From Chloroflexota bacterium (lineage in GTDB: Bacteria; Chloroflexota; UBA6077; SHYK01): 56,665 nt of DNA. The stretch lies in NCBI GenBank assembly GCA_016844585.1, contig JAERMM010000006.1:1-56665 (forward strand), written 5' to 3'. The notes beneath the pieces are model-generated. The model was not told where the DNA came from. It saw only the letters and a program-made list of their open reading frames with translations, and made no database searches. Below, in pieces: positions 26,796 to 53,233 of the stretch (its first letter is position 1; every line of letters starts with the position of its first letter). The position numbers were made by a program, and so were the translations under genes.

Positions 26796-26853
26796 CGTGA
26801 CGTCAATGCCACCACGGTTCGTCACGCTCCACGCCCAGCCCAGCTAGTCCGCA

Positions 26854-28104
26854 GTGGCCGCGTTTCTCCTTCTCGCGGCTGGCATCCTTGTAGGGGTGAT
26901 CCGCGAGCAGGCAGCACTCGTCATGCTGTGCTGTCTGTTGCTCGTCGCCGGCTTGTCGTCGTTGGCGTGGTCCCGTCGCTCAACAGGCAACCTTTCCTAT
27001 AGACGCTCCTTCGATCCGCCGCGTATCTTTCCCGGTGAGCGCACTGAATACATCGTAGAGATTGAGAACGGAAAGCTTCTGCCGCTGCCCTGGGTGAGGC
27101 TGGACGAGCATCTTCCGGCCGCGCTCACGCCAGCACAAGCCGTTGGCGTGATGATCAGCAGCGACGAAGGATGGCAGCGACGGCGAACGGTTTCACTCGG
27201 GTGGCGAGAGCGGCTCGTCCTTCGTCAGTCATTCACCGCCACCAAACGCGGCGAGTACATGGCTGGCCCGACCGATGTCGAAACCGGTGATCCACTGGGT
27301 TTCTTCCCAACCCATTTGCGCATACCGGAATCGCGCGCTCTTCTCGTCTACCCGCGTGTTGCGGCGCTCGAACCAATGCTCAGCACCTCGCGCGCCCCGT
27401 TCGGGATTGCGCCCGCCCGCCCGCCGGTCATGGAAGACCCGATCCGGTTCGCCGGCATCCGTGACTATCGGGCGGGGGACCCGATGCGCTGGGTGGACTG
27501 GAAAGCGACCGCCCGCCGAATGAAGCTGCAGACACGAGTATTTGCGCCGACCACGCTGAACAACGTCATTGTTGCGCTCAACGTTCAGACGATGGCTTTC
27601 ACCTGGCAAGGGTACGATGTCACACGGCTGGAGGAAGCGATCGGTGTCGCGGCAGCACTGGTGCGCGATGCACTGTCCACACGACAGCCCGTGGGGCTCG
27701 CGGCGAACGCCAGCGGCTCCGGGATGGAGGACTTTCAGGTTTTCCTCCCGCCCAACCGTCGTCCGTCTCAGCTCGAGGACACCCTCGCGGTGCTCGCCCG
27801 CCTCGCGCCTTTGCCCACGATGGCCTTCGGAACCTTCCTGCGGCGAATTGCCGCGAACTTTCCATACGGCGCCAGCCTGATGGTGGTCACGGCGTTCCTG
27901 GACGCAGAGACCGCGGAGGATCTTGCCCTCCTGGCCGAGAGAGGCCACGGCGTCTCCCTCGTCTACCTCGGAGATCGGTTGCCCGTGAGTGTCCCGGCAG
28001 CAGTCCACGTAACCTGCATGCCAGAAGTAGCGTTTGAGCCCATCCTTACCGAACCGGGACGGCCAGGTGTCACGGGTGTCACGCTGTCACACCACCCTTT
28101 TTAG
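26854..28104 (+). CDS. DUF58 domain protein (MoxR partner)
   Basis: Two N-terminal TM helices. Signature FAGIRDYRAGDPMRWVDWKATARR. Confidence 0.75.
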   Translation: MAAFLLLAAGILVGVIREQAALVMLCCLLLVAGLSSLAWSRRSTGNLSYRRSFDPPRIFPGERTEYIVEIENGKLLPLPWVRLDEHLPAALTPAQAVGVMISSDEGWQRRRTVSLGWRERLVLRQSFTATKRGEYMAGPTDVETGDPLGFFPTHLRIPESRALLVYPRVAALEPMLSTSRAPFGIAPARPPVMEDPIRFAGIRDYRAGDPMRWVDWKATARRMKLQTRVFAPTTLNNVIVALNVQTMAFTWQGYDVTRLEEAIGVAAALVRDALSTRQPVGLAANASGSGMEDFQVFLPPNRRPSQLEDTLAVLARLAPLPTMAFGTFLRRIAANFPYGASLMVVTAFLDAETAEDLALLAERGHGVSLVYLGDRLPVSVPAAVHVTCMPEVAFEPILTEPGRPGVTGVTLSHHPF

Positions 28105-36180: not shown

Positions 36181-36612
36181 ATGTTCCTGGGCGAGTTCGA
36201 GTACGCGATCGATGACCGAGGACGCATCGCGATACCCGCGAAGTTTCGTCCCGCCCTCATTGAAGGGCTCGTCGTCACACGCGGACTCGACCGGTGTCTG
36301 TCCATCTGGCCGATGAGCGCCTGGAGAGATATCGCGGAGCGATTCAACCAGCTTCCCCTCATGAACGCCGATGCACGCCGCCTGCACCGACTGATTTTCT
36401 CCGGGGCGACCGATGCCGAACCGGACCGTTTGGGGCGCATCTTGATACCCAGCTTCCTTCGCACCTATGCAGAGCTGAGCGACACGGTAGTGTTCGTCGG
36501 TTTGCATGATCGCATCGAGGTATGGGGTCGCGCCAACTGGGAGACAGAGCGCGCCGCCGCGGAGTCGCAAAGCGCGGAGCTGGCAGAGCACCTCTTCAAC
36601 CTGGGAGTCTGA
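36181..36612 (+). CDS. mraZ: Transcriptional regulator MraZ
   Basis: MFLGEFEYAIDDRGRIAIPAKFR and a second ...DRLGRILIPSFLR repeat. Confidence 0.95.
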   Translation: MFLGEFEYAIDDRGRIAIPAKFRPALIEGLVVTRGLDRCLSIWPMSAWRDIAERFNQLPLMNADARRLHRLIFSGATDAEPDRLGRILIPSFLRTYAELSDTVVFVGLHDRIEVWGRANWETERAAAESQSAELAEHLFNLGV

Positions 36613-36618
36613 TGCGAG

Positions 36619-37554
36619 ATGTCCGAAAGCCATCACGTGCCCGTACTCATGTCCGAGTGTCTGACGCTGTTAGAACCGAAGCCGGGCGGCCGTTTCATCG
36701 ACTGCACGGTCAACGGGGGCGGTCACAGCGCCGCGCTTCTGGAGCGCACCGCGCCGGATGGTCCGCTCCTCGGGCTCGACGCGGATCCTAATGCGATGCC
36801 CGCCGCCACGTCGCGATTGAACCCATACGGGACCCGCGTGACGCTCATTCAGACGAACTTTCGATTTGTCGGCCGTGTGGCCCGGAGTGAAGGCTTCGGC
36901 TCCGTTGATGGAGTGCTTCTCGACCTAGGGCTGTCCTCCAACCAGCTAGACACGCCTGGCCGAGGCTTCTCCTTCAACAGAGATGAGCCCTTGGACATGC
37001 GCTTTGACCCATCGAGCGGAATCAGCGCCGCCCAGTATGTGGCCGCCGCATCCCGCGAGGACATTGAGCACACGCTCCGCACTCTTGGCGAGGAGCCGCG
37101 GGCGCGACGCATTGCCGCGAATATCGTAGAGGCACGGCAGGATTCGCCCATCGCGACAACCGGTCAACTTGCTCGCCTTGTGTCCCGCGCTGTCGGCGGG
37201 CGCCACGGCCGAATTCATCCCGCCACTCGCGTATTCCAGGCGTTGCGAATGGCCGTAAACGACGAGCTCGGCGCCCTAGCGGAGGCGCTTCCTCAGGCCC
37301 TGACGCTGCTGCGTCACGGCGGTCGCCTGGCTGTCATCTCATTCCATTCGCTCGAGGACCGGCTGGTCAAGACGTTCCTTCGGCACATGGCAGGAGTCGT
37401 GGAGCCAGCACCGCGAGGCATTCCGATCATACCAGTCGCTCCAGTGACAGAGATGCGCATTCTGACGCGACGGCCAGTGGGAGCCGCGGCGGATGAGGTA
37501 GCCGCCAACCCACGCAGCCGCAGCGCACGCCTGCGTGTTGCTGAGCGACTCTGA
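36619..37554 (+). CDS. rsmH: 16S rRNA (cytosine1402-N4)-methyltransferase
   Basis: HVPVLMSECL, DCTVNGGGHS, DLGLSSNQLD and ISFHSLEDRLVK. Confidence 0.95.
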   Translation: MSESHHVPVLMSECLTLLEPKPGGRFIDCTVNGGGHSAALLERTAPDGPLLGLDADPNAMPAATSRLNPYGTRVTLIQTNFRFVGRVARSEGFGSVDGVLLDLGLSSNQLDTPGRGFSFNRDEPLDMRFDPSSGISAAQYVAAASREDIEHTLRTLGEEPRARRIAANIVEARQDSPIATTGQLARLVSRAVGGRHGRIHPATRVFQALRMAVNDELGALAEALPQALTLLRHGGRLAVISFHSLEDRLVKTFLRHMAGVVEPAPRGIPIIPVAPVTEMRILTRRPVGAAADEVAANPRSRSARLRVAERL

Positions 37555-38132
37555 TGGCCAGACTTGCCATCCCAACCACCCGCTACGGGCCGGCTCCCGT
37601 CCCCTCGCGCATGTGGCGCCCAGACGTATCTCGGCTTCCCAGTCTCGCGCTGAGCTGGATCGCCACTGCCGTGCTGTTCGTCGCAGCGGCCGTTGGACTG
37701 TATCTGATACAGGTTAGCTCGCTTGCTACGGGCGGCTACGAGCTGCAACGGCTGCAATCGGAGCGCGACGGATGGGTCGCGCGCAATCAGCAGATGGAGT
37801 TCGAGCTGGCGAAGCGCCGTTCGCTTCCCTGGGTCGAAGCCGAAGCTGCCCAACGCCTCGGCATGGCAAGGTCCGATCAGCCGTCCTACATCAATGTCCA
37901 GGCGCCGCAGGTCGGCGCCGAGCGTCAGGCGGCTCTGCCCTGCCGCCGTGATCTCGGGAGTTCCTGCAGTCTGACCGGACGAGCGGTTTCGTCGGCCTCG
38001 GCCCGCGCGGCTTCGACGGAAGCGCCGACCGGTACGTCCTTTGGAGCGCCGAGCAAGCCTCAGCTGCCCGGCAACCCGACGAGCATCCTGGCGGCCCTCC
38101 GTGACTGGGTCAGCCTTCTGACTGTGCGCTAA
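37554..38132 (+). CDS. FtsL-like cell division protein
   Basis: Position between rsmH and ftsI. Single TM helix LSWIATAVLFVAAAVGLYLIQV followed by a coiled-coil-like segment. Low-complexity C-terminus. Confidence 0.6.
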   Translation: MARLAIPTTRYGPAPVPSRMWRPDVSRLPSLALSWIATAVLFVAAAVGLYLIQVSSLATGGYELQRLQSERDGWVARNQQMEFELAKRRSLPWVEAEAAQRLGMARSDQPSYINVQAPQVGAERQAALPCRRDLGSSCSLTGRAVSSASARAASTEAPTGTSFGAPSKPQLPGNPTSILAALRDWVSLLTVR

Positions 38133-38134
38133 CA

Positions 38135-39841
38135 ATGTGGACGACTGCTGACGCCGATCAGGCACAGCGCTGGCGCCTGATGGTTGTTGGACTTTCTGTC
38201 ACAGCCTTTGCGGGGCTGGTCGCGCAAAATCTGCATTGGTACCAGGTCACGGACCACGAGAACCTGGTCTCGATGGCTACCGCGGAGCACCAGCAGCGCC
38301 TTCCGCTCCCGGCAAAGCGCGGTGGAATCTACGACACGAACGGAAACCCTCTCGCCGTGAACGTCATGTACGACGATGTCTGGGTCTACCGGCCCGAGGT
38401 GCGAGACCCGCAGAAGACCGCCACGAAGCTAGCCGAGGTACTGGACATCCCGGTGCCTGACGTCTCGGCAAAGATCCGGGCAGCCACGGACGATCGGCTC
38501 ATGTTGGCTTCCAGGATCTCGTCTAACGCGGCGAGGCTCATCGAGTCCGCCAACCTGGGAGGTGTCGAGCTTCGGCGGCGGCCAGCGCGCGAATACCCGG
38601 AGGGGAGCCTGGCTCCGCAGGTGCTCGGCTTCGTCGGGGTCGAGGACCATGGCCTGAGCGGGCTCGAACTGACGCTGGATGACGATCTCGGAGGCCGACC
38701 GGGCCTCATGATCACCGAGCGCGATACCGTGGGAGGCGAGATCGCGATAGGGCGGAAGGCTGTCGTGCCGTCCATTGACGGGTCCGACGTAGTCCTCACG
38801 ATCGACCGCTACGTTCAGAGACTGGTCGAGCGTGAGCTGGCGGCCGGGATCGCGGCCAACAAGGGCATCGGCGGAGTGGCTATTGTCATGGAGCCGTCAA
38901 CAGGGTCGATCCTCGCGATGGCATCGCTTCCTACGTACAGCCTGACTGCGGACGCCGGGTTCGACTCCTCGCACCAGCAGCTCTATAAGCCCGTCGCCGT
39001 TACTGACACGTACGAGCCGGGATCTGTAATGAAACTCATCACCATGTCCGCGGCGATCGACGAGCATGTCGTAACGCCGGACACTCCGTACGTCGACACC
39101 GGCGTCAGTATGGTAAACGGCATTCCCATCCGGAACTGGGATGGCGGAGCCCATGGCAACGTGACGGTTCGCGAGATCCTGGTGCGTTCCCTAAACACTG
39201 GAACCTCGTGGGTCGCCGGTCAGTTGGGCCCTGATCGCTTCTACCGCTACGTGGAGGCATTCGGGTTTGGCAAGACCACCGGGGTTCGACTCAACGGGGA
39301 GGCGGCCGGGGCCTTCCGTCGTCCAAACGAGGCCGGCTGGTCTGCTACCGACCTTGCGACAAATGCCTTTGGCCAATCGATCGCGGTCACCCCTGTGCAA
39401 CTGATGACCGCCATCTCCGCGATCGGAAACAACGGGATCCTCATGCAGCCGCGCCTGGTCCGCCAGCTCCGCGGTCCCGATGGAACGGTTGACGTGCCGC
39501 CCCGCCCCGTGCGCCCTGTCGTATCATCCGTAACAGCGGACACGGTCCTTGACATGATGGTTTCAACGTGGAATCAACCGGCTCTGCAGCAGGTCCACAT
39601 CGACGGGTACAAGATTGCGGCGAAGAGTGGCACCGCTGACATACCTGGCCCTGGTGGGTATAGCTCTGGCAAGACGTACGCCTCGTTCGTCGGATTTTCC
39701 CCTCTTCCCAACCCACGATTCGCGGTCATGGTGCGGATCGATCACCCTGAGAGCATCTACGGTGGCGTCGCGGCGGCCCCCGTCTTCAGCAACATCACTC
39801 GCCAGTTGCTCAACTACTATCGGATTGCGCCATCAAAATGA
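38135..39841 (+). CDS. ftsI: Penicillin-binding protein (class B transpeptidase, FtsI type)
   Basis: SVMK (SxxK), SLN (SxN) and KSGTA (KTG-type). dcw position. Confidence 0.9.
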   Translation: MWTTADADQAQRWRLMVVGLSVTAFAGLVAQNLHWYQVTDHENLVSMATAEHQQRLPLPAKRGGIYDTNGNPLAVNVMYDDVWVYRPEVRDPQKTATKLAEVLDIPVPDVSAKIRAATDDRLMLASRISSNAARLIESANLGGVELRRRPAREYPEGSLAPQVLGFVGVEDHGLSGLELTLDDDLGGRPGLMITERDTVGGEIAIGRKAVVPSIDGSDVVLTIDRYVQRLVERELAAGIAANKGIGGVAIVMEPSTGSILAMASLPTYSLTADAGFDSSHQQLYKPVAVTDTYEPGSVMKLITMSAAIDEHVVTPDTPYVDTGVSMVNGIPIRNWDGGAHGNVTVREILVRSLNTGTSWVAGQLGPDRFYRYVEAFGFGKTTGVRLNGEAAGAFRRPNEAGWSATDLATNAFGQSIAVTPVQLMTAISAIGNNGILMQPRLVRQLRGPDGTVDVPPRPVRPVVSSVTADTVLDMMVSTWNQPALQQVHIDGYKIAAKSGTADIPGPGGYSSGKTYASFVGFSPLPNPRFAVMVRIDHPESIYGGVAAAPVFSNITRQLLNYYRIAPSK

Positions 39842-39853
39842 GCGAGGGCTCTG

Positions 39854-41236
39854 ATGTTCGCGTTGAGCGACGTTCTGGCAGGCACGAACGGACGTCTGGT
39901 GACCGGCGCCGAAATGGGTGCCTTCCGTTCGGTGTCCATCGATTCGCGGACGGCATCACGTGCGTCGCTCTTCTTCGCCTTTCACGGCCAGAAGCACAAC
40001 GGACACGACTTTGTCATGCAAGCATTTGGACGGGGCGCCTCGGGTGCGATCGTCGAGACGCTTCCGCCCCAGGCGCCCTGGGCGGCGCCCGAGTGGAGTG
40101 GCCCACCCGTCATTCTGACTGCCAGTTCGGGCCAGGCTCTGCAGGATCTTGCCACCTACTGGCGCCAGCGACATGGCATCCGCGTCGTTGGCGTGACGGG
40201 AAGTGTCGGCAAGACCACGACGAAAGAACTGATCGCCAGCACGCTTGCGCGCCGGTATTCCGTACTGCGTACGACATCGAACCTGAATACGGAGATCGGC
40301 CTGCCTTTGACGCTCATGGAGCTGGGGCCGGAGCATCAGGTGGCTGTGCTTGAAATGGCAATGTACGACGTCGGCGAGATCAGGCGACTGGCAGCCATCG
40401 CTCGGCCCGAGGTCGGCGTGGTGACCAACGTTGGCTACAGCCACCTGGAGCGGCTGGGAACGATCGAACGGATCTCCGAAGCCAAGAGTGAGCTGGTGCG
40501 TGAGCTGCCTGCATCCGGACTGGCCGTCCTCAACGCAGATGACCCGCGTGTGAGCGCGATGGCCGAGATGACAACCGCGCGTGTGGTTCGATACGGCGTT
40601 CAAGAAGGAGCGGACTTCTGGGCGGACGAGATCGAGAGCCATGGGCTGCGCGGCATCGAGTTCACGGTGCACTACGAGAATCACCGGCTACGCGCAAAGC
40701 TCGCCTTGCTCGGGACGCACTCGGTTCACGCCGCGCTAGCCGCCATCGCGGTTGCGACAAACATGGGAATGGAATTCGACGACGCGATGGCCGCGCTGCA
40801 CACAGATGAGCGCGGCGTCCGTCTGCTTGTTGAGGACGGCATACAGGGCACGACGATTCTGGATGACACGTACAACGCGAATCCCGCATCGACGCTGGCG
40901 GCGCTCAATTTGCTGGCCGAAATGGACGGGCGCAGAGTAGCCGTACTGGGTGACATGCTCGAACTGGGAAGCTTTGAGGCGGAAGGGCACCAGCTCGTCG
41001 GGAGGCGCGCCGCGGCGGTCGCCGATTGGGTACTGGCCGTGGGTTCAAGAGCGCGAATCATCGCCGATGAAGCGCGACTCATGAAGCTCCGCGCAACGAC
41101 GGTTGAGACGTTCGACAACAACGAGGAGGTCATCGAGCGTCTGCGACAGGGACTACGCCCCGGAGACTTTGTTCTCATGAAGGGATCGAGGGGCATGCGG
41201 CTCGATGAAGTGGTTTCGGCGATCCGCGTCGGATAG
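39854..41236 (+). CDS. murF: UDP-N-acetylmuramoyl-tripeptide--D-alanyl-D-alanine ligase
   Basis: SIDSRTASRASLFFAF.G...GHDF, VTGSVGKTTTKE and DDTYNANPAS (MurF rather than MurE signatures). Confidence 0.9.
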   Translation: MFALSDVLAGTNGRLVTGAEMGAFRSVSIDSRTASRASLFFAFHGQKHNGHDFVMQAFGRGASGAIVETLPPQAPWAAPEWSGPPVILTASSGQALQDLATYWRQRHGIRVVGVTGSVGKTTTKELIASTLARRYSVLRTTSNLNTEIGLPLTLMELGPEHQVAVLEMAMYDVGEIRRLAAIARPEVGVVTNVGYSHLERLGTIERISEAKSELVRELPASGLAVLNADDPRVSAMAEMTTARVVRYGVQEGADFWADEIESHGLRGIEFTVHYENHRLRAKLALLGTHSVHAALAAIAVATNMGMEFDDAMAALHTDERGVRLLVEDGIQGTTILDDTYNANPASTLAALNLLAEMDGRRVAVLGDMLELGSFEAEGHQLVGRRAAAVADWVLAVGSRARIIADEARLMKLRATTVETFDNNEEVIERLRQGLRPGDFVLMKGSRGMRLDEVVSAIRVG

Positions 41237-41312
41237 CAAAGCGGTCAGACGTGTGGAGCCCATCCTCACCCTTCCCCCCGTAGGGTCAGGGAGGACACAC
41301 TGAGGAGGTCGA

Positions 41313-42275
41313 TTGTCCTACGCCCTCGTGGTTGGCGGCGCAACCTTCATCCTTGCGTTCGCCGCTGGATTTCCGCTCCTTGCCGCGTTGCGACGGCTGA
41401 GCATCGGAAAGCAAATCCGTCTCGAGGGACCCACGACACACGTCGCCAAGATGGGCACTCCTACCATGGGGGGTATTCTGGTCTGGGCATCGGTGTTTGT
41501 GTCAACCGCGCTGTTCAATGTTTTGAACAACCCGTCGATCATCGTGCCGCTCTCCGTCACAGCCGCCACGGGACTCTTGGGCACCATCGACGACGCCCTC
41601 GGAATGGTGGGAACGACTGCAGACGGGATGACCGTCCGAATGAAGTTCGCGGGACTGACCGCAATCGCAGCGGCCGGCGCGGTCGCACTCTATGGGCCAT
41701 TGGGGATTGACTACCTGTACGTACCAACCATTGCGGATAAGTGGCACATTCATCCGGCGATCTACCTGCCCCTGGCGGCGCTGGCGATTGTCTCCACGGC
41801 AAACGCCGTTAACCTTACGGACGGCTTGGACAGCTTGGCCGGCGTATGCGCCGCGGTCGCCTTCACCTGCTACGGAATCATTGCCCATCTGCAGGGCCAG
41901 GGGCCCCTGGTGACATTTTGTTTCACAATCGTGGGCGCGCTACTCGCGTTCTTGTGGTTCAACGCCTACCCGGCCGAGTTGTTCATGGGGGATGCTGGAG
42001 CTCTCTCTCTCGGAGCAGCTCTCGCGGTTGTCGCTTTGATGACCGGTCACCTGCTTCTCCTGCCATTCATCGGGGCGGTTTTCGTCGCGGAGGCTGCATC
42101 CGTAATTCTGCAGGTAGGCTACTTCAAGCTGACTCGCGGGAAGCGACTATTCCTCATGTCACCGCTGCACCATCATTTCGAGATGCTCGGTTGGTCTGAG
42201 ACACACGTGTCGCAGCGCTTCTGGCTGGTGAGCATGCTGTCCGGCATGGTGGGGATCTCACTTGCGCTCACCTAG
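41313..42275 (+). CDS. mraY: Phospho-N-acetylmuramoyl-pentapeptide transferase
   Basis: GTPTMGG, NAVNLTDGLDSLA, MGDAGALSLG and SPLHHHFE. Confidence 0.95.
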   Translation: MSYALVVGGATFILAFAAGFPLLAALRRLSIGKQIRLEGPTTHVAKMGTPTMGGILVWASVFVSTALFNVLNNPSIIVPLSVTAATGLLGTIDDALGMVGTTADGMTVRMKFAGLTAIAAAGAVALYGPLGIDYLYVPTIADKWHIHPAIYLPLAALAIVSTANAVNLTDGLDSLAGVCAAVAFTCYGIIAHLQGQGPLVTFCFTIVGALLAFLWFNAYPAELFMGDAGALSLGAALAVVALMTGHLLLLPFIGAVFVAEAASVILQVGYFKLTRGKRLFLMSPLHHHFEMLGWSETHVSQRFWLVSMLSGMVGISLALT

Positions 42276-43680
42276 CTACCTCATCCCGCACCTTTCTGAA
42301 ATCGGTCGACGAAGACTCGACCTGCTGCGCTCCGTCCGGGTTGGCGTGGTGGGACTCGGGCGTGAGGGCGTCGACCTGGCTCGATTTCTTCATAGCGCCG
42401 GCGCGGACGTGGTGGTGAGCGACCGTGCAGACGCGGGGCTGCTTCGAAGCCAGATCGACGCCCTGCGCGACGTGCCCATCACCTACCGAATTGGCACGGA
42501 GCGTGAAACTGACCTACTGGACTGCGACGAGCTGTTCATTAGCCCGGGCGTGTCTCGAGATGCGCCGCTCGTTCTAGCTGCGGTCGCCGCGCGGATTTCG
42601 GTGACAAGTGCCACCCGATTATTCTTCGAGCTTTGCCCGGGACCGATTGCGGGCATCACCGGCAGCAGCGGTAAGACCACAACTACCTCGATGGTCGGAT
42701 CGATCCTCAAAGCGTCGAATACGCCCAGCATCGTCGGGGGCAACATTGGTATGCCCATGCTTGGGCGATTGGTCGAGTTGACCCCGGACACGTGGACCGT
42801 ACTGGAGCTCAGTAGCTTCCAGTTGGACGATATGACCACGTCGCCGAGCGTTGGCGCCGTTCTCAACGTCACCCCGAATCACCTGGATCGCCATCCAGAC
42901 ATGGCCGACTATGTCCGGGCTAAGGGAAACATCGTGCTCCACCAGGGCCGCCAGGACGTGGCGGTGCTGAACGCGGACGACTCCATCGCATCGTCGCTGC
43001 CCCATAGGAGCCGAACCATCGAGTTCAGCGTCGAGAAACCGGTCACCGGGGCGTGGCTCGATGGTGAGCACCTTATGCTGTCCCTGGACGGCGAGCGTCC
43101 AACGCGCCTGTTCGCACGTGGCGAGCTAAGGCTCCGTGGAATGCATAACGTCGCCAACGCTATGGCAGCGGCCGCTGTCGCATCGGTCATTGGCAGCGAT
43201 TCCACGACCATCGCCAACGCGTTGCGCGCGTTCCGTCCGGTTCCGCATCGGCTGGAGGTAGTCGCTACCGTAGACGGAGTGACGTTCATAAACGACTCCA
43301 TCGCAACATCGCCTGAGCGCTCCATGGCCGCCTTGCGTTCAATAGACGAGCCGATCGTACTGATCGCCGGAGGACGAGACAAGCATCTGCCAATGGACGA
43401 CTGGGCGAACCTGATTGGCAAGCATGCGCGCGTCGTTGTGTTAATAGGTGAGGCCGCTCCGCTCATCCGAGAAGCGCTGCGTTCGACGGCCCCGGGCACG
43501 CCGCTGGTGGAGGCGAAAAGCCTGGACGAAGCCGTCTCGCTTGGCTCGGACTTCGCAGCGCCTGGCGATGTGGTTTTGCTCTCACCCGGCTGCACCAGCT
43601 TCGACACGTTTCGAGACTTCGAAGCACGCGGCGAAGCATTCCGCAATGCGGTAGCGATGGTCCGGCGGAGAACCCTCTAA
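42262..43680 (+). CDS. murD: UDP-N-acetylmuramoylalanine--D-glutamate ligase
   Basis: VGVVGLGREG, GITGSSGKTTT and NDSIATSPE. Start may be downstream of TTG 42262. Confidence 0.9.
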   Translation: MRSPSYLIPHLSEIGRRRLDLLRSVRVGVVGLGREGVDLARFLHSAGADVVVSDRADAGLLRSQIDALRDVPITYRIGTERETDLLDCDELFISPGVSRDAPLVLAAVAARISVTSATRLFFELCPGPIAGITGSSGKTTTTSMVGSILKASNTPSIVGGNIGMPMLGRLVELTPDTWTVLELSSFQLDDMTTSPSVGAVLNVTPNHLDRHPDMADYVRAKGNIVLHQGRQDVAVLNADDSIASSLPHRSRTIEFSVEKPVTGAWLDGEHLMLSLDGERPTRLFARGELRLRGMHNVANAMAAAAVASVIGSDSTTIANALRAFRPVPHRLEVVATVDGVTFINDSIATSPERSMAALRSIDEPIVLIAGGRDKHLPMDDWANLIGKHARVVVLIGEAAPLIREALRSTAPGTPLVEAKSLDEAVSLGSDFAAPGDVVLLSPGCTSFDTFRDFEARGEAFRNAVAMVRRRTL

Positions 43681-44993
43681 TGGTTGTGGCACGCGGTCGA
43701 ATCGACACCATCCTCCTACTACCTGTCGTTGTACTGCTCGCCATCGGAGCCGGCATGGTATTCAGTGCCAGCTTCGTAGTCGCGCACAATGAATTTGGCG
43801 ACGACACCTATTTCCTGGTTCGCCACCTCCTTTGGATTACCATCGGCATGGGCGTCCTGGTCGTTGTGAGTCACATGGACTACCACCGCTGGCAACGACT
43901 TGCCGTCCCCTTTTATGCGGTCAGTCTGGCGCTCCTTTTGCTGGTACTCATTCCCGGGATCGGCTCATCCGCATACGGTGCGAGCCGATGGTTTACAGTC
44001 GGATCCATTCTGTCAATTCAGCCGAGCGAGATCGCCAAACTTGCCGTCGTTGTCTATCTCGGCGCCTGGGTCACCCGGGTCGGCACAGACATCAACAAGT
44101 TCACCTTCGGCACGGTCCCGTTCGCCATCATCCTGGGGCTGTCGGCGGGACTGGTTCTGGTCGAGCCCGACCTCGGAACCACTGTTGTCCTTGTGTTAAC
44201 GGCCGGGTCTGTCTTCTTTATCTCAGGCGCCAACGTCTTGCACGCGCTTGTCGGGCTGATGGTGATCGCCGTCGCTGGCGTAAAGGTCATCGCCTCGTCA
44301 GCCTATAAGTCGGATCGAATCGATGCGTTCGTGAACCCCTGGGCCGACCCGAACGGCGTCGGTTGGCATACCACTCAATCACTACTCGCCCTTGGCTCCG
44401 GCGGGCTGACTGGTCTTGGCCTCGGCGCCAGCCGCCAAAAGTACTACTACGTGCCGAACGCGCACACGGACAGCATCTTTGCAATCGTGGGTGAGGAGAT
44501 AGGGTTCCTCGGTACGACACTCGTTCTCGTCCTTTTCCTGATCATCGTCTGGCGCGGCCTCACCATCGCTGGGGCATCACGAGATCCGCTGGGGCGAGCC
44601 TTGGCCGCTGGGGCCACGCTTATGCTGGCCTGGCAGGCGATGCTGAATATGGCCGTTGTAAGCCATGTCGTACCAAACACAGGCGTGCCTCTGCCCTTCG
44701 TGAGCTATGGAGGCAATGCGATGGTTGTCAGTATGGCCGCCGTCGGAATCATTCTCAGCGTCGGAAGGTCTCTCAGTCCCTCAGTTCTCTCCTGGCGGTC
44801 GTGGCTTCCTCAGTTAGGCCGGATTGGGTCGAGAGCCGATCGCGCGACTCCGACGACTTCGGCTCGGCCAGCACGGGACACTCGTCCCACGGCGAGAGGC
44901 CGCACCGTTCCCGTGACCGGCCGCGCAGCCCTGGCTCAAGTTCGAGGCTCCGTCCGTCCGCGTACGCGCAGGCGCCCGTTGCCGAGCCGCTGA
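43680..44993 (+). CDS. ftsW: SEDS-family peptidoglycan polymerase FtsW with Arg/Pro-rich C-terminal tail
   Basis: IQPSEIAKLAVVVYLG, HTDSIFAIVGEEIGFLG and PFVSYGGNAM. About 75-aa basic low-complexity tail. Confidence 0.9.
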   Translation: MVVARGRIDTILLLPVVVLLAIGAGMVFSASFVVAHNEFGDDTYFLVRHLLWITIGMGVLVVVSHMDYHRWQRLAVPFYAVSLALLLLVLIPGIGSSAYGASRWFTVGSILSIQPSEIAKLAVVVYLGAWVTRVGTDINKFTFGTVPFAIILGLSAGLVLVEPDLGTTVVLVLTAGSVFFISGANVLHALVGLMVIAVAGVKVIASSAYKSDRIDAFVNPWADPNGVGWHTTQSLLALGSGGLTGLGLGASRQKYYYVPNAHTDSIFAIVGEEIGFLGTTLVLVLFLIIVWRGLTIAGASRDPLGRALAAGATLMLAWQAMLNMAVVSHVVPNTGVPLPFVSYGGNAMVVSMAAVGIILSVGRSLSPSVLSWRSWLPQLGRIGSRADRATPTTSARPARDTRPTARGRTVPVTGRAALAQVRGSVRPRTRRRPLPSR

Positions 44994-44996
44994 TCG

Positions 44997-46340
44997 ATGG
45001 GGCTCGAAGAAGCGGTCGTCCGCCCTCCGGAAATAGACGGAGTTCGAAGCGCGCACCTGATAGGCATTTGCGGCACTGCTATGACCCCGCTTGCAACCAT
45101 CCTGCTGCAGATGGGGGTCGGCCACCGCGCCGAACACGTGGGAGACGTAGCAGTGGTGATCGCGTCCTCGGCGATCAGACAGGACAATCCTGAGATCGTG
45201 GCAGCTCTCGCACAAGGAATCCCGGTGATCAAGCACTCCGCGGCGCTCGGGAGCCTGATGAGGCCACGCCGTGGCGTAGCGATTGCCGGCACCCACGGAA
45301 AGACAACCACCTCAGCGCTTGCCAGCTTTGTCCTCGCCAACGCCGGCATCGATATCTCTTTCCACGTTGGTTCTGAGATCCTCAATTACGGCGTGTTTGG
45401 ACGCTACGGGCGCAGCGAGCTGCTGGTCGCCGAGGCAGACGAGTACGACCGCCGGTTCCTGGACTACGAGCCGGAGATCGCCATCGTCACCGGCGTGGAG
45501 CCAGATCATCTCGACTACTTTGGTTCGTTCCATGAGGTAGTCGGCGCGTTCCGGGCGTTCCTCGGACAGGTGCGGCCTAACGGCCTGTCGGTCATCTGTC
45601 AGGATGATCCGGTCGCCCGAATCCTGCCCACGACCGCTGGCCTCCGAATGACCTATGGATTCAGCGAAGACGCCGATTGGCAGATCTCGAGCTGGTCGCC
45701 ATCGGGCGTCTCACCGGGAAGCAGGTTTGAACTGCGAGGCCCTGATGGTGCTGTTCACGAACTGGAGATCGGCCTCGTTGGCCGCCACAACGTGCTCAAC
45801 GCGGCCGGAGTGGTCGCGGTTTGCACTCACCTGGGGCTATCCATGGACCAGATCGCCCGTGGGCTGCGTGAATTTCGCGGCACGCGTCGGCGGTTCGAAC
45901 TCATAGGAGTGCATGACGGTGTGACGGTCGTCGATGACTACGCGCACCATCCTACCGCGATTCGCGTGACCCTGGAGGGTGCGCGTGCGCATTTCCCGGG
46001 CGGCATCTGGTGCATCTTCCAGCCGCACACGGCCCATCGGACCGAGAGCCTGTTCGATGACTTCTGCACCGCGTTCGCCGAAGCCGACCATGTCATCCTC
46101 ACGCCGACCTATCGGCCAGCCGGTCGCGAGGATAGAACTGACGATCCTTCGGTAAAAAGGCTAGCGGAGGCGATGCGTCACCCTGATGCGCGTCTGATGG
46201 CGCCAGACGAGGCGATGAAAACGATCCTGTGCGAAGCCCGGTACGGCGACCTCGTCCTAGTGGCGGGCGCAGGGGACATCACGAGCATAGCTCCTCGAAT
46301 AGTCTCGGCTCTGCGCCAGGGGCGCCCCCATGAGAGTTAA
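44997..46340 (+). CDS. murC: UDP-N-acetylmuramate--L-alanine ligase (N-terminal domain shortened)
   Basis: IGICGTAMTPLA, AGTHGKTTTSAL, EADEYDRRF and DDYAHHPTAI. See the finding on the missing segment. Confidence 0.85.
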   Translation: MGLEEAVVRPPEIDGVRSAHLIGICGTAMTPLATILLQMGVGHRAEHVGDVAVVIASSAIRQDNPEIVAALAQGIPVIKHSAALGSLMRPRRGVAIAGTHGKTTTSALASFVLANAGIDISFHVGSEILNYGVFGRYGRSELLVAEADEYDRRFLDYEPEIAIVTGVEPDHLDYFGSFHEVVGAFRAFLGQVRPNGLSVICQDDPVARILPTTAGLRMTYGFSEDADWQISSWSPSGVSPGSRFELRGPDGAVHELEIGLVGRHNVLNAAGVVAVCTHLGLSMDQIARGLREFRGTRRRFELIGVHDGVTVVDDYAHHPTAIRVTLEGARAHFPGGIWCIFQPHTAHRTESLFDDFCTAFAEADHVILTPTYRPAGREDRTDDPSVKRLAEAMRHPDARLMAPDEAMKTILCEARYGDLVLVAGAGDITSIAPRIVSALRQGRPHES

Positions 46341-47316
46341 AACCTCCGCCGTCTCTTCGATCCGCGCGCTAGCGGAGCGGCTCGGCCCCGCCGCCCGCTG
46401 CGACGCGCCCCTTGCCCGCTACACGTCGATCCGCGTTGGCGGGACAGCAGACCTCTTTCTGGTCGCGAAGTCTCGAGACCAGTTGGTGGAAGCAGTGGAG
46501 CGAGCCGCCGAGCTCGAGATTCCTTGGCGCGTCATAGGTTCTGCCTCAAACCTTCTCGTCTCGGATGAAGGCGTGGACGGTCTGATAATCAAAGTCGGCG
46601 TTGGGACCACTTCGATCGAGACTTCGAACGATGAATCTGGCGCGTTGCTCCGAGCTGACGCTGGCTGCATTCTTGCAGCGGTTGCAAAACAGGCGGCGAA
46701 ACAAGGATACGGAGGACTCGAATGGGCGGCGAACGTCCCGGGCACCGTTGGAGCAGCCGTGGTAAACAACTCGGGCGCGTTCGGCTCTTGCACCTCCGAG
46801 CAACTCGCGTCAGCCGGGGTCTTTACTCCCGGGCACGGTGTGGCGACGTTGTCCGCCGCTGACTTGGATATGCACTATCGGTCGACGCGCTTGAAGCGAA
46901 ATGAGCTTAGAGGCGTCGTGCTGGATGCAGCATTCCGGGTCACGCCAGGTGACCCGATCGCTCTCGCTCAGCGAATCCGCGAGATTCAGGGGAGACGGAG
47001 GGCTACTCAGCCAACCGGTTTCAGCGTTGGGTCGGTGTTCGCCAACCCGTCAGGGGACACGGCGGGGCGACTCATCGAGACTTGCGGGCTCAAGGCGAGA
47101 CGACGGGGTGACGCCGAGGTGTCGCAGCTCCACGCAAACTTCATCGTGAACCGCGGGAGCGCTCGAGCCCGAGACGTTCTGGACTTGATGATGGAGGTCC
47201 AGAGGACTGTGTGGGAAAGGGCGGGACATTGGCTGTCGCCGGAGCTGCAGCTCGTCGGCCGCTGGACCGCTGAAGACTTGGTCGTCCTGTCGCGACCGCC
47301 TGGCGCCGCCCAGTGA
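46330..47316 (+). CDS. murB: UDP-N-acetylenolpyruvoylglucosamine reductase
   Basis: LARYTSIRVGGTADLF, GSASNLLV and GSVFANP. Confidence 0.9.
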   Translation: MRVKTSAVSSIRALAERLGPAARCDAPLARYTSIRVGGTADLFLVAKSRDQLVEAVERAAELEIPWRVIGSASNLLVSDEGVDGLIIKVGVGTTSIETSNDESGALLRADAGCILAAVAKQAAKQGYGGLEWAANVPGTVGAAVVNNSGAFGSCTSEQLASAGVFTPGHGVATLSAADLDMHYRSTRLKRNELRGVVLDAAFRVTPGDPIALAQRIREIQGRRRATQPTGFSVGSVFANPSGDTAGRLIETCGLKARRRGDAEVSQLHANFIVNRGSARARDVLDLMMEVQRTVWERAGHWLSPELQLVGRWTAEDLVVLSRPPGAAQ

Positions 47317-48158
47317 GCCGGGTCGTTCCGATGAGACGTCCGCCTCGTCGATCCAACGGTGGACGGCGCCAACGCGTCGAGGCCCCGCGAAGCAAGGCAC
47401 GCAAACCGGACGCACCGCGCAGCCCAATCATGATCAGACAGCACGTTCGGGGCATTTTCAGCGGTTGGTTCCTCGGGAAGCTCCTCGCGGTGGCAATTCT
47501 GGCTAGTGGAGCCTGGGCGTTTATCGAGGGTGCTTCGAGCCCACAGCTTCGAGTAACTCGGGTCGACGTTGTGGGCAACCGGCTTGTTGGAACCGACGAG
47601 ATTCTGTCCATGCTTTCAGTGGAGGGCGAAAACGTCTTCCTGATCCGCAGCCCACGCATCGAGCGGCGGCTGCTGGCGGACCCAGCCATCGAATGGTCGA
47701 CCGTCGAACCTCGACTTCCTGACCTCGTAGAGATCCATATTGGCGAGCGTCAACCCGCGGTAGTGTGGGACACGGGCGTGCGTAGGACCCTTGCTGACGC
47801 CGATGGGCTGGGACTGAGGGAAAGTCCGCCGGGGACCGTGTCCCTACCCGTCGTGCGCGCACCGGAGGGCCCAGAAGTCGACCCGGGTGGTCGTGCGGAC
47901 CGAGTTGCGGTACGCGTGGCCCAGGCTGTCGGCCCGCGGCTCGACGCGCTGGAGCTGCCCAATGGCTGGATTGAGTTCCACCCCAATAGCGGAGTCTCGC
48001 TGGTCACGCCGAGCGGCATGAGGGTTGCTCTCGGGTTCGGCGATGACGTCGAAAACAAGATCACTGCGTATCAGGCCATTCGCGGGTATCTTTCCCAGAC
48101 GAAAACACCGGCGAGCTTCATCGACGTTCGATTTCATGAACGGCCCTATTTCCGCTAG
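47313..48158 (+). CDS. ftsQ: Cell division protein FtsQ (POTRA domain)
   Basis: Basic N-terminus, TM helix LGKLLAVAILASGAWAF, then POTRA-like RVTRVDVVGNRLVGTDEI. dcw position. Confidence 0.75.
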   Translation: MSRVVPMRRPPRRSNGGRRQRVEAPRSKARKPDAPRSPIMIRQHVRGIFSGWFLGKLLAVAILASGAWAFIEGASSPQLRVTRVDVVGNRLVGTDEILSMLSVEGENVFLIRSPRIERRLLADPAIEWSTVEPRLPDLVEIHIGERQPAVVWDTGVRRTLADADGLGLRESPPGTVSLPVVRAPEGPEVDPGGRADRVAVRVAQAVGPRLDALELPNGWIEFHPNSGVSLVTPSGMRVALGFGDDVENKITAYQAIRGYLSQTKTPASFIDVRFHERPYFR

Positions 48159-48262
48159 TTGCGTTTGTGCTCTGCTCAATAGTCCGTTGCTGAGCGTCAT
48201 AATTGGTCTGGTATCATCGGCCAGCCCAAAAGTCATGGGGTGACAAAATCGCTCGAGACCAG

Positions 48263-49477
48263 ATGATTGTCGGAATCGACGTCGGCACCACGAAAGTGTG
48301 CACTTTGATTGCTGACGTCAGCCGCGACCTTACCGAGGTTCTGGGCGTGGGCATTGCTCCCTCACAAGGCGTCAAAAGGGGGGTGATCGTCGATGTCGAA
48401 GCGGCGGTCGACGCGATTTCCGCGTCGCTTCGCCGAGCGGAGCAGCAGTCCGGATTCAAAGCGATGAGCGCTTTCGTGGGGGTTTCAGGCGCTCACATTC
48501 TCTCAACGAACAGTCACGCCGTCATCAACCTCCGCCCGGCTGAGAGTGTCATCGGGTTCGATGACGTGTCAAGAGTTATCGACGGAACGCGCATAGTCCA
48601 GTTGCCCCCCGACCAGGAGATCGTTCATGTCGTCCCGCGGCACTTCATCGTCGATGGCCGGGATGGACTCGCCAACCCGGTTGGCATGACCGGGCATCGT
48701 CTCGAGGTCGAAGCGAATATCGTGACCGGGTCGGTAACATCGATCCACAACCTCATGCGCTGCATTCAACCGGTTCATGTGGAGCTGGACGCGCTGGTTC
48801 TCGAGCCGCTTGCCGCTGGAAAGGCGGTCCTGACCGATGAGGAGCAGATGCAAGGCGCCATGGTCATCGACATCGGCGGAGGCACCACGGGGGCAGCAGT
48901 CTTTCGTGACGGCAGTCTGATTCACAGCTGCGTGCTCCCGGTAGGCGGGTTTCAGATCAGCAACGACCTTGCCATCGGTCTGCGGGCGACGTTCCAGATC
49001 GCTGAGGAGGTAAAGGTTCGCCACGGGTCGACGATTGAGTACGCATCGGGGAATGGACAGATGGTCACGATTCCCGACTACGGACGGGGCGAGGGCCATT
49101 CCGTCGACCAGCGCATAGCTGCCGAGATCATTGATGCGCGCCTCGCCGAAACGTTCGAGCTGGTTCAGGAACAGATGCTGCGGGCCGGCTTCGGCTATGC
49201 ATATCCTGCCGGCGTTGTCATAACCGGGGGCAGTTCCCAGATTCCCGGCACAGCGGCCCTGGCCTTCGAGGTATTCGGGGTTCCGTGCCGTTTGGGCGCC
49301 CCACGTCGCCTGCATGGTTTGGCCGATGCCGTGCGAGGTCCAGCGTTTTCGACCAGCGTCGGGCTGATCGAATGGGGTCGAGAGCAGCTTGACCAGAGCA
49401 CGCAGACCGAGCCGTCGACAGGTGTCGGACGGGCTGGAGCCACGATCCGTGCCTGGCTCCGGAACTTTTTCGCATGA
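48263..49477 (+). CDS. ftsA: Cell division protein FtsA
   Basis: [28 protein letters not shown] and [11 protein letters not shown]. Confidence 0.9.
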
Positions 49478-49529
49478 GACGAAGGGCCAGGGGGTTCGAC
49501 GTGCGCACGGCGGGGCCGGGCGCGAAAGG

Positions 49530-50690
49530 ATGGAGCTATTGATGATCGGCCAGATGGACGGCGCCGCGCGGATCGTCGTGCTCGGAATCGGTGGCGGCGG
49601 GTGCAACGCCGTGGACCGCATGATCGCAGCCGGTCTTGGAGGCGTAGAGTTCGTCGCCGTCAACACAGATCAGCAGGCATTGACTCGGTCCGATGCGCCC
49701 AGGCGGATCCGGCTAGGCGAGAAACTCACCCGCGGGCTCGGAGCCGGTGGAAACCCTATTGTCGGCGCAAAGGCAGCCGAGGAGACGGCTGACGAGTTGT
49801 TCGACGTGTGTCGGGGGGCCGACATGGTATTCATCGCCGCCGGGATGGGCGGGGGGACCGGAACTGGTGGATCCCGGGTCGTCGCGCAGATCGCGCAAGA
49901 GGTCGGCGCCCTCACGGTTGGTGTCGTTACCAAACCGTTCGCCTTCGAAGGATCTCGGCGGCGACGAACAGCCGAGGAGGGAATCAGCGCTCTGCAGGCG
50001 CAGCTCCACACCCTCATCGTCATTCCGAACGATCGGGTGCTTCAAGTCATTGACAAGCGCACGACAGTCCAGCAGGCATTCGCCGTGGCCGATGATGTGC
50101 TTCGGCAGGGAATCCAGGGCATATCCGAACTCATAACCCGCCCGGGCCTGATCAATCTGGATTTTGCCGATGTGAAGAGCGTCATGTCCGAGTCCGGCAT
50201 CGCGCTTATGGCCATCGGATCGGCGGCAGGCGAGAATCGCGCCGTTGAGGCTGCGCAGGCCGCAATGGCGAGCCCGCTGCTCGACCTGTCCATGCAGGGG
50301 GCCCGCGGCGTGCTGTTCAATATTACGAGCGGGCCGGACCTGAGTCTGGCCGACGTCAACCGAGCGGCCGATGTGATCCGCGCGGCTGCTGACCCGGACG
50401 CAAACATCATTTTTGGCACAGTGATCGACGAGAGTCTGACCGACGAAGTGCGAATCACCGTGATTGCCACGGGCTTCGACGCTTCTGCCTCCGGCGTGAG
50501 CACCCGCTCCACCGGCTCATTCCGCGGCTTTCAATTTCCGGAGAGCTCCGAACCCGCGCCGCCGGCATACGGCAGCCCGACCGCCGAAGAGCCATATGAC
50601 GCGCTTCGCCGGTTCGGGCAACGGCCGACGGGCCTCGATGATCCCCTGCCCCCGGGCCCCGATTGGACCCGGGGGCAGACCCGCCGTTAG
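49530..50690 (+). CDS. ftsZ: Cell division protein FtsZ
   Basis: ATG 49530 after [29 protein letters not shown] and NLDFADV. Confidence 0.95.
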
Positions 50691-51396: not shown

Positions 51397-51684
51397 ATGT
51401 TCATTCAGTTCTTGCTCTACTTTGTCTCCGCGCTGTTCGAGATCCTCTTCTGGGCCATCATCGCCCGGTCGCTCCTTTCATGGTTCCCGATGCGTCCTGG
51501 AAATCCCTTCTTCCAACTCGCAGTCGTTCTCAATCAGATCACCGAGCCAATCCTTGGCCCGCTTCGCCGCGTCATTCCAATGATCGGCATGATGGACATC
51601 TCACCCATCGTCGCCCTTTTGCTGCTCCGGTTCATCGAAGGCGCCCTAACCCAGGCCTTGATCAGCGCGTCGCGGAGCTTTTAG
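51397..51684 (+). CDS. yggT: YggT-family membrane protein
   Basis: 95 aa, two hydrophobic segments, ...ARSLLSWFP...ITEPILGPLRRVIP. Follows yggS as in many genomes. Confidence 0.8.
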   Translation: MFIQFLLYFVSALFEILFWAIIARSLLSWFPMRPGNPFFQLAVVLNQITEPILGPLRRVIPMIGMMDISPIVALLLLRFIEGALTQALISASRSF

Positions 51685-51691
51685 CGTCGTT

Positions 51692-51982
51692 TCACGCACC
51701 TCCGATCTCGACGATCTTAGTCCGGCCGCGTTGGCCCGCCACAACTCTTACCTGCGAGGCCCGCACCCCAAGACGCTCAGCAAGAAGGCGGCACAGCGCA
51801 TCATTGGCCTTTCCATCGATGGGCGCGGTCCCTTCAGCCCGAAGCGTGATGTCCTCCCCTCCCTTGTCCTGGAAGGAGTACATTTCCTTTTCCACGACAT
51901 CAGTCATCTCGCCGGAGGCCGCGACGCTATAATAGGAGCCCCGGGCGAGCGCCTCGAGTATTCGCGTCTCCCCAAGCGTCAG
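51692..51982 (-). CDS. DUF167 (YggU-family) protein carrying a 32-codon HisRS-derived insert; start codon unresolved
   Basis: The C-terminus DGKANDALCRLLAERLGVRASQVRVVAGQRGRTKIVEI matches the DUF167 core (..dGkAN.al..lLa..lgv..s.v.iv.G..sR.K.v.i). The N-terminal ...RILEALARGSYYSVAASGE fits the first strands weakly. Between them lies the left arm of the 99-bp repeat. The only in-frame starts before hisS are CTG or ATA. Confidence 0.5.
   Translation of the reverse strand: MTLGETRILEALARGSYYSVAASGEMTDVVEKEMYSFQDKGGEDITLRAEGTAPIDGKANDALCRLLAERLGVRASQVRVVAGQRGRTKIVEIGGA
51817..51915. repeat. Left arm of perfect 99-bp inverted repeat
   Basis: Exact reverse complement of 52158-52256 (99/99, checked by hand). 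Confidence 0.97.
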
Positions 51983-52000
51983 ATTCCAACGAGGTGAACG

Positions 52001-53233
52001 GTGTTTCAGGCCCCTCGCGGCACTCAGGACATCCTGCCAGACGACCTGGCCCACTGGACGTTCGTCGAGCGAACCGCCCGCCGCTTCGCTGCGCTGTTCG
52101 GCTATTCCGAGATCCGCACCCCGACCTTCGAAGACACTGGCCTCTTCCACCATGGCGCCGGCGAGATGACTGATGTCGTGGAAAAGGAAATGTACTCCTT
52201 CCAGGACAAGGGAGGGGAGGACATCACGCTTCGGGCTGAAGGGACCGCGCCCATCGCGCAGCCGATCCGTCTCTTCAGCCTGATCAGCGTTTTTCGATAC
52301 GACCGTCCACAGGCAGGACGCCTTCGAGAGCATCACCAGTTCGATTGTGAGGCGTTCGGCGAGGAAGATGCCGCCCTGGACGCCGAGACCATCACCCTGC
52401 TGTGGCGCTTTTATGAGGCGCTGGGCCTCAGCGGCCTATCGATTCAGCTCAACTCTATTGGCGACCTCGAGTGCCGACCGGCCTACATCGCTCGGCTTCG
52501 CGCTCACTACGCTGGCCGCGAGGCCGACTTGTGCGGCGACTGCCGCCGACGTCTTGAAAAGAATCCGCTGCGCCTGCTTGACTGCAAGGTCCCCACATGC
52601 CAGCCAATTGCCGACGCTGCACCGTCTTTCGTCGACAGCCTTTGCCATCCCTGCGCAGAGCACTTTGCGCAGGTTCGAGCGGCGCTCGATGCCGAGAACA
52701 TCCCGGTCATGCTCAACCGCCGCCTGGTGCGAGGATTCGACTACTACACGCGAACCGTGTTTGAAGTGTGGCCGCAACACATTGGCGCCCAGTCGTCCAT
52801 TGGGGGAGGCGGTCGCTACGACGGGCTTGCCGAGCAGATCGGAGGTCGCCACACGCCGGGCGTCGGATTTGGCACAGGCATTGAGCGCTTGATCTTGAAT
52901 CTCAAACGGCAGGGAGTCGAGGTCCCGCCCGCCGACCGGCCAATCGCCTACGTCGCCCACATGAGCGAAGCAGCCCGGAGCGCTGCGCAATTGTTCGCCA
53001 GCATGCTGCGTGCGAGTGGCATTCCGACAGTGCTCGGCGTTGGGAATCGGCCGGTTCGCGCCCGCCTTCGCAACGCCGACTCAATCGGGGTTCGGTGGAC
53101 AGCACTCTTCGGAGACGACGAACTTCGCGACGGATCTGTATCGTTGCGCGACATGTCCACAACGGCGCCCGAGACCGTGCCGGTCGCGGTGGCAGTCGAC
53201 CGGATCGCCGCGACTGCGGGGAAATCGGCATGA
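52001..53233 (+). CDS. hisS: Histidine--tRNA ligase (with an internal ~13-residue gap relative to the family)
   Basis: MFQAPRGTQDILP, TDVVEKEMYSFQDKGGEDITLRAEGTAP, FRYDRPQAGR, LVRGFDYYTRTVFE, GGGGRYDGL, and an anticodon-binding domain. GAGGTG lies 4 nt before GTG 52001. Confidence 0.85.
   Translation: MFQAPRGTQDILPDDLAHWTFVERTARRFAALFGYSEIRTPTFEDTGLFHHGAGEMTDVVEKEMYSFQDKGGEDITLRAEGTAPIAQPIRLFSLISVFRYDRPQAGRLREHHQFDCEAFGEEDAALDAETITLLWRFYEALGLSGLSIQLNSIGDLECRPAYIARLRAHYAGREADLCGDCRRRLEKNPLRLLDCKVPTCQPIADAAPSFVDSLCHPCAEHFAQVRAALDAENIPVMLNRRLVRGFDYYTRTVFEVWPQHIGAQSSIGGGGRYDGLAEQIGGRHTPGVGFGTGIERLILNLKRQGVEVPPADRPIAYVAHMSEAARSAAQLFASMLRASGIPTVLGVGNRPVRARLRNADSIGVRWTALFGDDELRDGSVSLRDMSTTAPETVPVAVAVDRIAATAGKSA
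52158..52256. repeat. Right arm of perfect 99-bp inverted repeat (inside hisS, codons 54-85)
   Basis: Exact reverse complement of 51817-51915. Confidence 0.97.

Follow-up and report, generated by a model that had tools for sequence, protein, structure and literature searches.

A perfect 99-nt inverted repeat, a 36-nt gap in the gene for histidine--tRNA ligase (hisS) and a truncated DUF167 gene, found side by side in the metagenome-assembled draft genome of a Chloroflexota bacterium, are most probably local assembly or scaffolding errors, and not features of the chromosome. Most likely, contig boundaries at 51817, 51915/6 and 52256/7 were wrongly joined, and the real genome, in which both hisS and DUF167 are probably intact, most likely encodes a normal HisRS of ~422 aa together with a complete DUF167 protein. 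The stretch of DNA analysed here (56,665 nt, hereafter the window) is one contig, C219, of a draft genome in 443 pieces, which amounts to 3.85 Mb and is 80% complete. A first-pass annotation of this DNA had noticed that hisS loses conserved codons at the edge of the repeat, and had proposed that one genomic rearrangement produced both features and left an impaired or specialised enzyme. That proposal is no longer the reading best supported by the data: the arms of the repeat have the 99-nt length of the overlaps between scaffold ends, and similar errors occur elsewhere in the same genome. The features on which the argument turns are the following:

51692..51826, minus strand: remnant of a DUF167 gene (YggU family, Pfam PF02594), with no start codon of its own
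51817..51827 (break at 51816/7), no strand: junction J1, placed by the sequence and by comparison with the DUF167 gene of the closest relative, contig L032
51817..51915, minus strand: left arm of the inverted repeat, exact reverse complement of 52158-52256
51915..51916, no strand: junction J2, where the left arm meets the region upstream of hisS; homology to L032 is back at ~51917
51916..52000, plus strand: hisS upstream region, conserved with L032, with TATAAT at 51928-51933
52001..53233, plus strand: hisS (histidine--tRNA ligase), an ORF of 410 aa as assembled, against 417-423 aa in relatives
52158..52256, plus strand: right arm of the inverted repeat, homologous to the hisS of L032 throughout
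52256..52257, plus strand: junction J3, where 36 nt (12 codons, VRAYL(E/Q)HGMQAR-P) are absent according to both DNA (L032) and protein alignments

The closest relative is a JGI contig (L032), whose HisRS (P0002) is 89% identical to that of the window at the amino acid level, and where hisS and DUF167 are both intact and arranged as in the window. Between positions 51500 and 52500, the two DNAs are ~90% identical throughout with two exceptions only, which are the interior of the left arm and the gap in hisS. At the gap, the DNA alignment reads ...CCCATCG directly followed by CGCAGCCG in the window, versus ...CCCGTCG followed by TTCGGGCCTATCTGCAGCACGGCATGCAGGCTCGCC and then CGCAGCCG in the relative, so that the right arm ends at base 52256 and the 36 nt TTCGGGCCTATCTGCAGCACGGCATGCAGGCTCGCC that should come next are missing. 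The loss that had been noticed is thus real and does begin at the repeat edge, although its size is 12 codons and not the ~13 first reported. Judging from these alignments, the gap is derived and specific to this assembly, because both the relative (~90% nucleotide identity) and the other homologs inspected carry the 36-nt segment. None of the ~58 homologs inspected lacks it, including the one that is 89% identical, and all other correctly oriented homologs inspected show the pattern (V/M/I)RAYL(E/Q)HG...(R)P.

The lost residues belong to a conserved helix (VRAYLEHG) between the LRxEGT strand and motif 2, which is absent from the window ORF. In an alignment of 38 homologs, whose members are 54-86% identical to its first sequence (P0003), residues R87, Y89 and G93 of the segment are invariant, whereas A88 and H92 are at least 90% conserved, a pattern that argues for strong constraint on this part of the protein. 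The segment aligns to residues 87-99 of the HisRS of Staphylococcus aureus (1QE0) and to residues ~88-98 of the Escherichia coli enzyme (1HTT). In the AlphaFold model of P0003, an intact relative, it appears as a helix (residues 82-91), with mean pLDDT values of 63-86 for the 10-residue blocks over residues 71-110, and the model of the window HisRS, obtained with the same alignment depth, falls below 50 at residues 40-70, 73-87 and 99-108. The remainder of the enzyme looks complete, as had been anticipated from the sequence: the catalytic core (PF13393, residues 7-297) and the anticodon-binding domain (PF03129, residues 317-403) are both recognised by Pfam, and the protein as assembled scores 422.2 bits against TIGR00442, well over the curated equivalog cut-off of 286.75, with 444.6 bits for the intact P0002.

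The two arms of the repeat (51817-51915 and 52158-52256) are identical over 99 nt and lie 242 nt apart, and their origins can be told from the comparison with the relative. The right arm is genuine hisS sequence, corresponding to codons ~53-85 (GEMTDVVEKEMYSFQDKGGEDITLRAEGTAPI). The left arm occupies the place of the 5' half of DUF167 and of its upstream DNA: positions 51831-51923, inside the left arm, have no homology to positions 282-414 of L032 in the DNA alignment, where the relative has 133 nt that hold the first 30 codons of DUF167 (MRLTVRVHPRAGRDEVVLREGGGVDAWLKA) and the DNA upstream of them. Accordingly, what is left of the gene in the window matches only profile positions 35-75 of the 76 in PF02594 (at 51704-51826), and, read on the minus strand, the left arm runs in frame into this C-terminal half. 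A full-length DUF167 on the opposite strand, between yggT and hisS, is present in both L032 and another relative (G005).

All three junctions fall at the ends of the 99-mer (51816/7, 51915/6 and 52256/7). At J1, the repeat arm terminates within codons for Ala-Pro-Ile that are common to DUF167 (minus strand) and hisS (plus strand). Judging from the DUF167 sequence of the relative at this point (...WLKAAPIDGKAN), J1 would lie at an inverted microhomology of ~7-10 nt, GCGCCCATCG. Positions 51916 to 52000, between J2 and the start of hisS, are a putative hisS promoter region, whose expected -35 position would fall in the left arm. We also considered the minus strand of 51916-51990 (TRILEALARGSYYSVAAS) as a possible N-terminus of DUF167, a candidate that was rejected, as this is the conserved upstream region of hisS and the DUF167 of L032 starts with MRLTVRVHPRAG....

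The surrounding genes run in the order ftsZ-yggS-yggT-hisS-prfA-prmC, as they do in six family relatives, and the spacer between yggT and hisS is a variable insertion spot. In one of the relatives (G003, L026 6619-7298), the slot of DUF167 is taken by two overlapping ORFs on the same strand (138 and 87 aa), which from their sequences look like a PIN-domain toxin and its antitoxin, and in four others there is nothing between yggT and hisS. Further upstream in the window (36181-50690), the dcw cluster has no murE, murG or ddl, and its order is collinear with three family relatives, so this composition is lineage-typical and implies no loss in this contig.

The strongest evidence for an assembly origin comes from the length of the repeat. 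We compared the whole draft genome with itself by BLAST, and separately scanned it contig by contig with a word-based method. Perfect repeats of exactly 99 nt occur 12 times in the genome, and BLAST found no other perfect repeat longer than 72 nt; the word-based scan detected perfect direct repeats of 98, 86, 85 and 77 nt within contigs, none of them of 99 nt. A scaffold end is involved in 11 of the 12 repeats of 99 nt, the window repeat being the only one that is internal on both sides. Likewise, 11 pairs of scaffold ends have a common terminal 99-mer, and none has a common 100-mer. A single 99-nt overlap pairs the end of a scaffold with an internal site of another (C85 6078-6176 and C304 2738-2836), and it may mark a further point at which a scaffold crosses a junction of the graph. 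The assembly was therefore built on a de Bruijn graph, with neighbouring pieces overlapping by exactly 99 nt, and was then scaffolded using distance estimates from read pairs. According to Chen et al. (bioRxiv 10.1101/808410), with n as the largest k, scaffold ends overlap by n in metaSPAdes assemblies and by n-1 in those of IDBA_UD, and 99 nt is the k or k-1 of the assembler used here. As for the identity of this assembler, the 99-nt overlaps and the N runs of variable length are suggestive, and only point to one. For a real duplication, a length of exactly 99 nt would be a coincidence of roughly 1 in 100.

Scaffolding errors can indeed be recognised elsewhere in this genome, which contains 21 N runs with lengths of 2-78 nt. 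At two of them, the sequence of the left flank is repeated directly after the gap, over 48-59 nt in one case (C406, 2995-3006) and over 21 nt in the other (C423, 1150-1176), and therefore the distance estimates were off by ~50-60 nt. At both sites Ns were put in although the contigs overlap, a behaviour that has been listed for IDBA_UD and CLC (Chen et al., bioRxiv 10.1101/808410).

Besides, two other conserved genes of this genome show dropouts of similar size, each unique to it in comparison with relatives. In murC (44994-46337), 75 nt (25 aa) are missing in frame at 45117-45118 (LLQMGV/GHRAEH), where three family relatives carry DVTGSDL...GARIFF, a stretch that takes in the V-x-GSD strand of the N-terminal domain; this site has no flanking repeat, and here the contig probably suffered another local dropout during assembly. 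The other case is a HisRS-like paralog linked to hisG in contig C155, which lacks 61 nt at ~3801 when compared with its orthologs in G003 and G005, so that LARGLRYYTG is lost and the frame is shifted, again with no repeat at the site. Since two of the three dropouts (hisS and murC) are in frame and the third is not, nothing points to selection for the frame. It is implausible that an organism would live with damage to both its MurC and its sole HisRS. A further gap of 13 aa, in the protein encoded at 26848-28101, was discarded as ordinary, since it falls in a variable low-complexity loop. Taken with the scaffolding errors of similar size and the two further dropouts, the match between arm length and scaffold-end overlap makes a shared contig boundary the most likely link between the gap and the repeat.

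A plausible course of events can be proposed from the positions of the junctions. The upstream contig would run from the 3' half of DUF167 through a false or minority junction, placed at the short inverted microhomology within the Ala-Pro-Ile codons of the two genes, into the reverse strand of hisS, and it would end with a 99-nt overlap, as any contig that meets another one in the graph; this tail would be the left arm. A short contig, with the promoter region and the 5' end of hisS, would stop at 52256 owing to a branch in the graph, its final 99 nt being presumably the right arm. The scaffolder would then have ordered the upstream, short and downstream contigs correctly from read pairs, and the three would have been written head to tail without Ns, with distances that were wrong by tens of nucleotides and came out as non-positive. 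As a result, the 99-nt tail would be kept, whereas hisS would lose ~36 nt and DUF167 its 5' half, and the junctions would be expected to lack support among the reads.

Two observations count against a pure artifact. The first one is the putative microhomology of 7-10 nt at J1, since an assembler alone cannot create such a join, which would need either a real event or, among the reads, chimeras or a minority variant. The second one is that both the hisS gap and the DUF167 fusion are in frame, and a viable real deletion would look alike. Among more specific versions of the artifact, routines of particular assemblers (unitig rules, or the closing of gaps at tips with 10-nt overlaps) were considered, and none gave all three junctions. 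A wholesale stripping of Ns from the scaffolds was rejected, as 21 N runs remain, and a library rich in chimeras, which would show numerous inverted junctions of every length, is unsupported, the 99-nt repeat being the only local inverted repeat above 29 nt, which is the length of the next longest in the word-based scan of the genome. We also searched for the same sequences on independent records. The exact HisRS protein of the window, with either a V or an M start, was not on record in the protein collections searched, and a search by protein for an independent assembly gave a best non-self match of 89% identity. When the N-terminal 149 aa were used as query, with gene fragments on short contigs in mind, the best match was 77% identical, and an exact 47-mer of the repeat was absent from the metagenome_contigs and genome_contigs collections.

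Mutation by template switching between inverted microhomologies that lie close together is well established, and a real and recent switch of this type, or a fold-back during replication or repair, is the foremost rival explanation, although we regard it as unlikely. A 3' end at the Ala-Pro-Ile microhomology would have written an inverted copy of 99 nt of hisS over the DUF167 5' half, and the 36 nt of hisS would have been lost either in that event or through damage at that site, leaving a dead DUF167 and a shortened HisRS. The microhomology at J1, the breakpoint that J1 and J3 share and the complete identity of the arms, which is what a recent event would leave, all agree with this explanation, as do the in-frame deletion and the fact that the protein still scores as hisS. 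However, the arm would have to match the assembly overlap exactly, by the coincidence calculated above, and a deletion on the donor side is not expected from a simple templated repair. The event would also strip three invariant residues from the only HisRS found, in a genome where demonstrable scaffolding errors are present and where murC and the HisRS paralog show similar dropouts with no repeat at all.

A stronger form of the same explanation, in which a single recent switch is real and the loss of the 12-residue helix from the only HisRS is tolerated or compensated by the paralog linked to hisG, seems improbable to us. The first-pass annotation had suggested that a second hisS could back up the enzyme, but a second true hisS was not found in this 80%-complete draft genome, and the only candidate is that paralog, which is broken in the assembly:

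C155 3320-4830 (locus L006), minus strand: HisRS-like paralog (35% identity), lying immediately upstream of hisG

The hisG beside it is of the long form (TIGR00070 plus TIGR03455). The N-terminal part of the paralog scores 163 bits against the HisZ model TIGR00443, below its cut-off of 271.65, and the C-terminal part aligns with positions 263-405 of the hisS profile, which include the anticodon-binding region, so that the protein reaches neither the hisS nor the hisZ cut-off. In relatives, the intact paralog has ~500 aa, with an insertion of ~120 aa and an end that resembles an anticodon-binding domain, and from these features it could be either HisZ-like or a second HisRS.

Far less probable is a programmed invertible DNA switch, in which the 99-nt repeats would flank a 242-nt segment with the promoter and 5' end of hisS, and where inversion would swap the N-terminus of hisS between the hisS body and the 3' half of DUF167. 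Perfect inverted repeats do bracket the divergent 5' region, and both fusions would be in frame. Nevertheless, the inversion would break the only hisS, and the repeat is absent from L032 (89%) and from G005, which have the same gene arrangement. The flanks are the housekeeping genes ftsZ, yggS, yggT, prfA and prmC, collinear with relatives and with no recombinase among them, and the length of the arms is again that of the assembler overlap.

The last alternative, a clade whose HisRS would naturally have a short loop and a variant motif 2, retains next to no probability, because its ISVFR and REHHQ variants are indeed common to relatives but the 12 residues are present in all the relatives and homologs inspected, the closest being 89% identical, which refutes it for the gap. 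The motif 2 had been described as atypical, and the sequence so described is there; nonetheless, ISVFRYDRPQAGRLREHHQFD is identical in family relatives, and LISVFRYDRPQAGRLREHHQFDCE is the same in L009, L010, P0002 and P0003 and differs by one residue in L007. Because of this identity among members of the same family, the variants are, on the evidence of these alignments, lineage-typical, the normal sequence of the clade and unrelated to the repeat. The orthologs from related lineages, which had been put forward as the way to refute a link between the protein's peculiarities and the repeat, give a split answer: they share the motif-2 variants but not the short loop, which is unique to this assembly.

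With an assembly error as the preferred explanation, the finding is biologically minor, since the organism most likely has an ordinary HisRS. The deposited 410-aa protein is nevertheless probably wrong, as is the chimeric ORF that covers DUF167, and such sequences can spread into databases; in-frame gaps that look unusual in this genome should not be taken as biology until the reads have been checked. More generally, an exact internal repeat with the length of the scaffold-end overlap is a cheap flag for errors in other draft genomes, which requires no reads. Should the structure prove genuine, it would illustrate clearly how, in nature, a template-switch mutation can strike an essential aminoacyl-tRNA synthetase.

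It remains to compare these observations with known systems. The window protein has, like the class IIa HisRS enzymes (TIGR00442; 1QE0, 1HTT/1KMM and 1ADJ), a catalytic core and an anticodon-binding domain with the GGGRYDGL and RGFDYYT motifs, and its matches to HisRS chains in the PDB have E-values of 1e-89 to 1e-79; unlike them, the protein as assembled has no helix between the LRxEGT strand and the first strand of motif 2. With template-switch mutations, and with the fold-back chimeras that arise in vitro during amplification or library preparation, the window has in common that an inverted copy of a nearby sequence replaces the local one, with a junction at a short inverted microhomology. 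Those processes, however, give copies of arbitrary length, whereas the copy here equals the assembler overlap, and they leave the adjacent loss of 36 nt from the donor unexplained. Among the errors of de Bruijn metagenome assemblies (IDBA_UD, CLC and metaSPAdes; bioRxiv 10.1101/808410), the form seen in the window, where the end overlap of a contig is kept as an internal inverted repeat, is not described, and the density of errors in our genome is somewhat above that of the example genome in the same study, which had 13 errors in 1.13 Mb. Lack of read support defines such errors, and the likeness drawn here comes from the assembled sequence alone. Even so, the shared features are several: perfect overlaps of fixed length between scaffold ends, N gaps whose size was estimated, Ns put between flanks that overlap, and short stretches of consensus that damage protein-coding genes.
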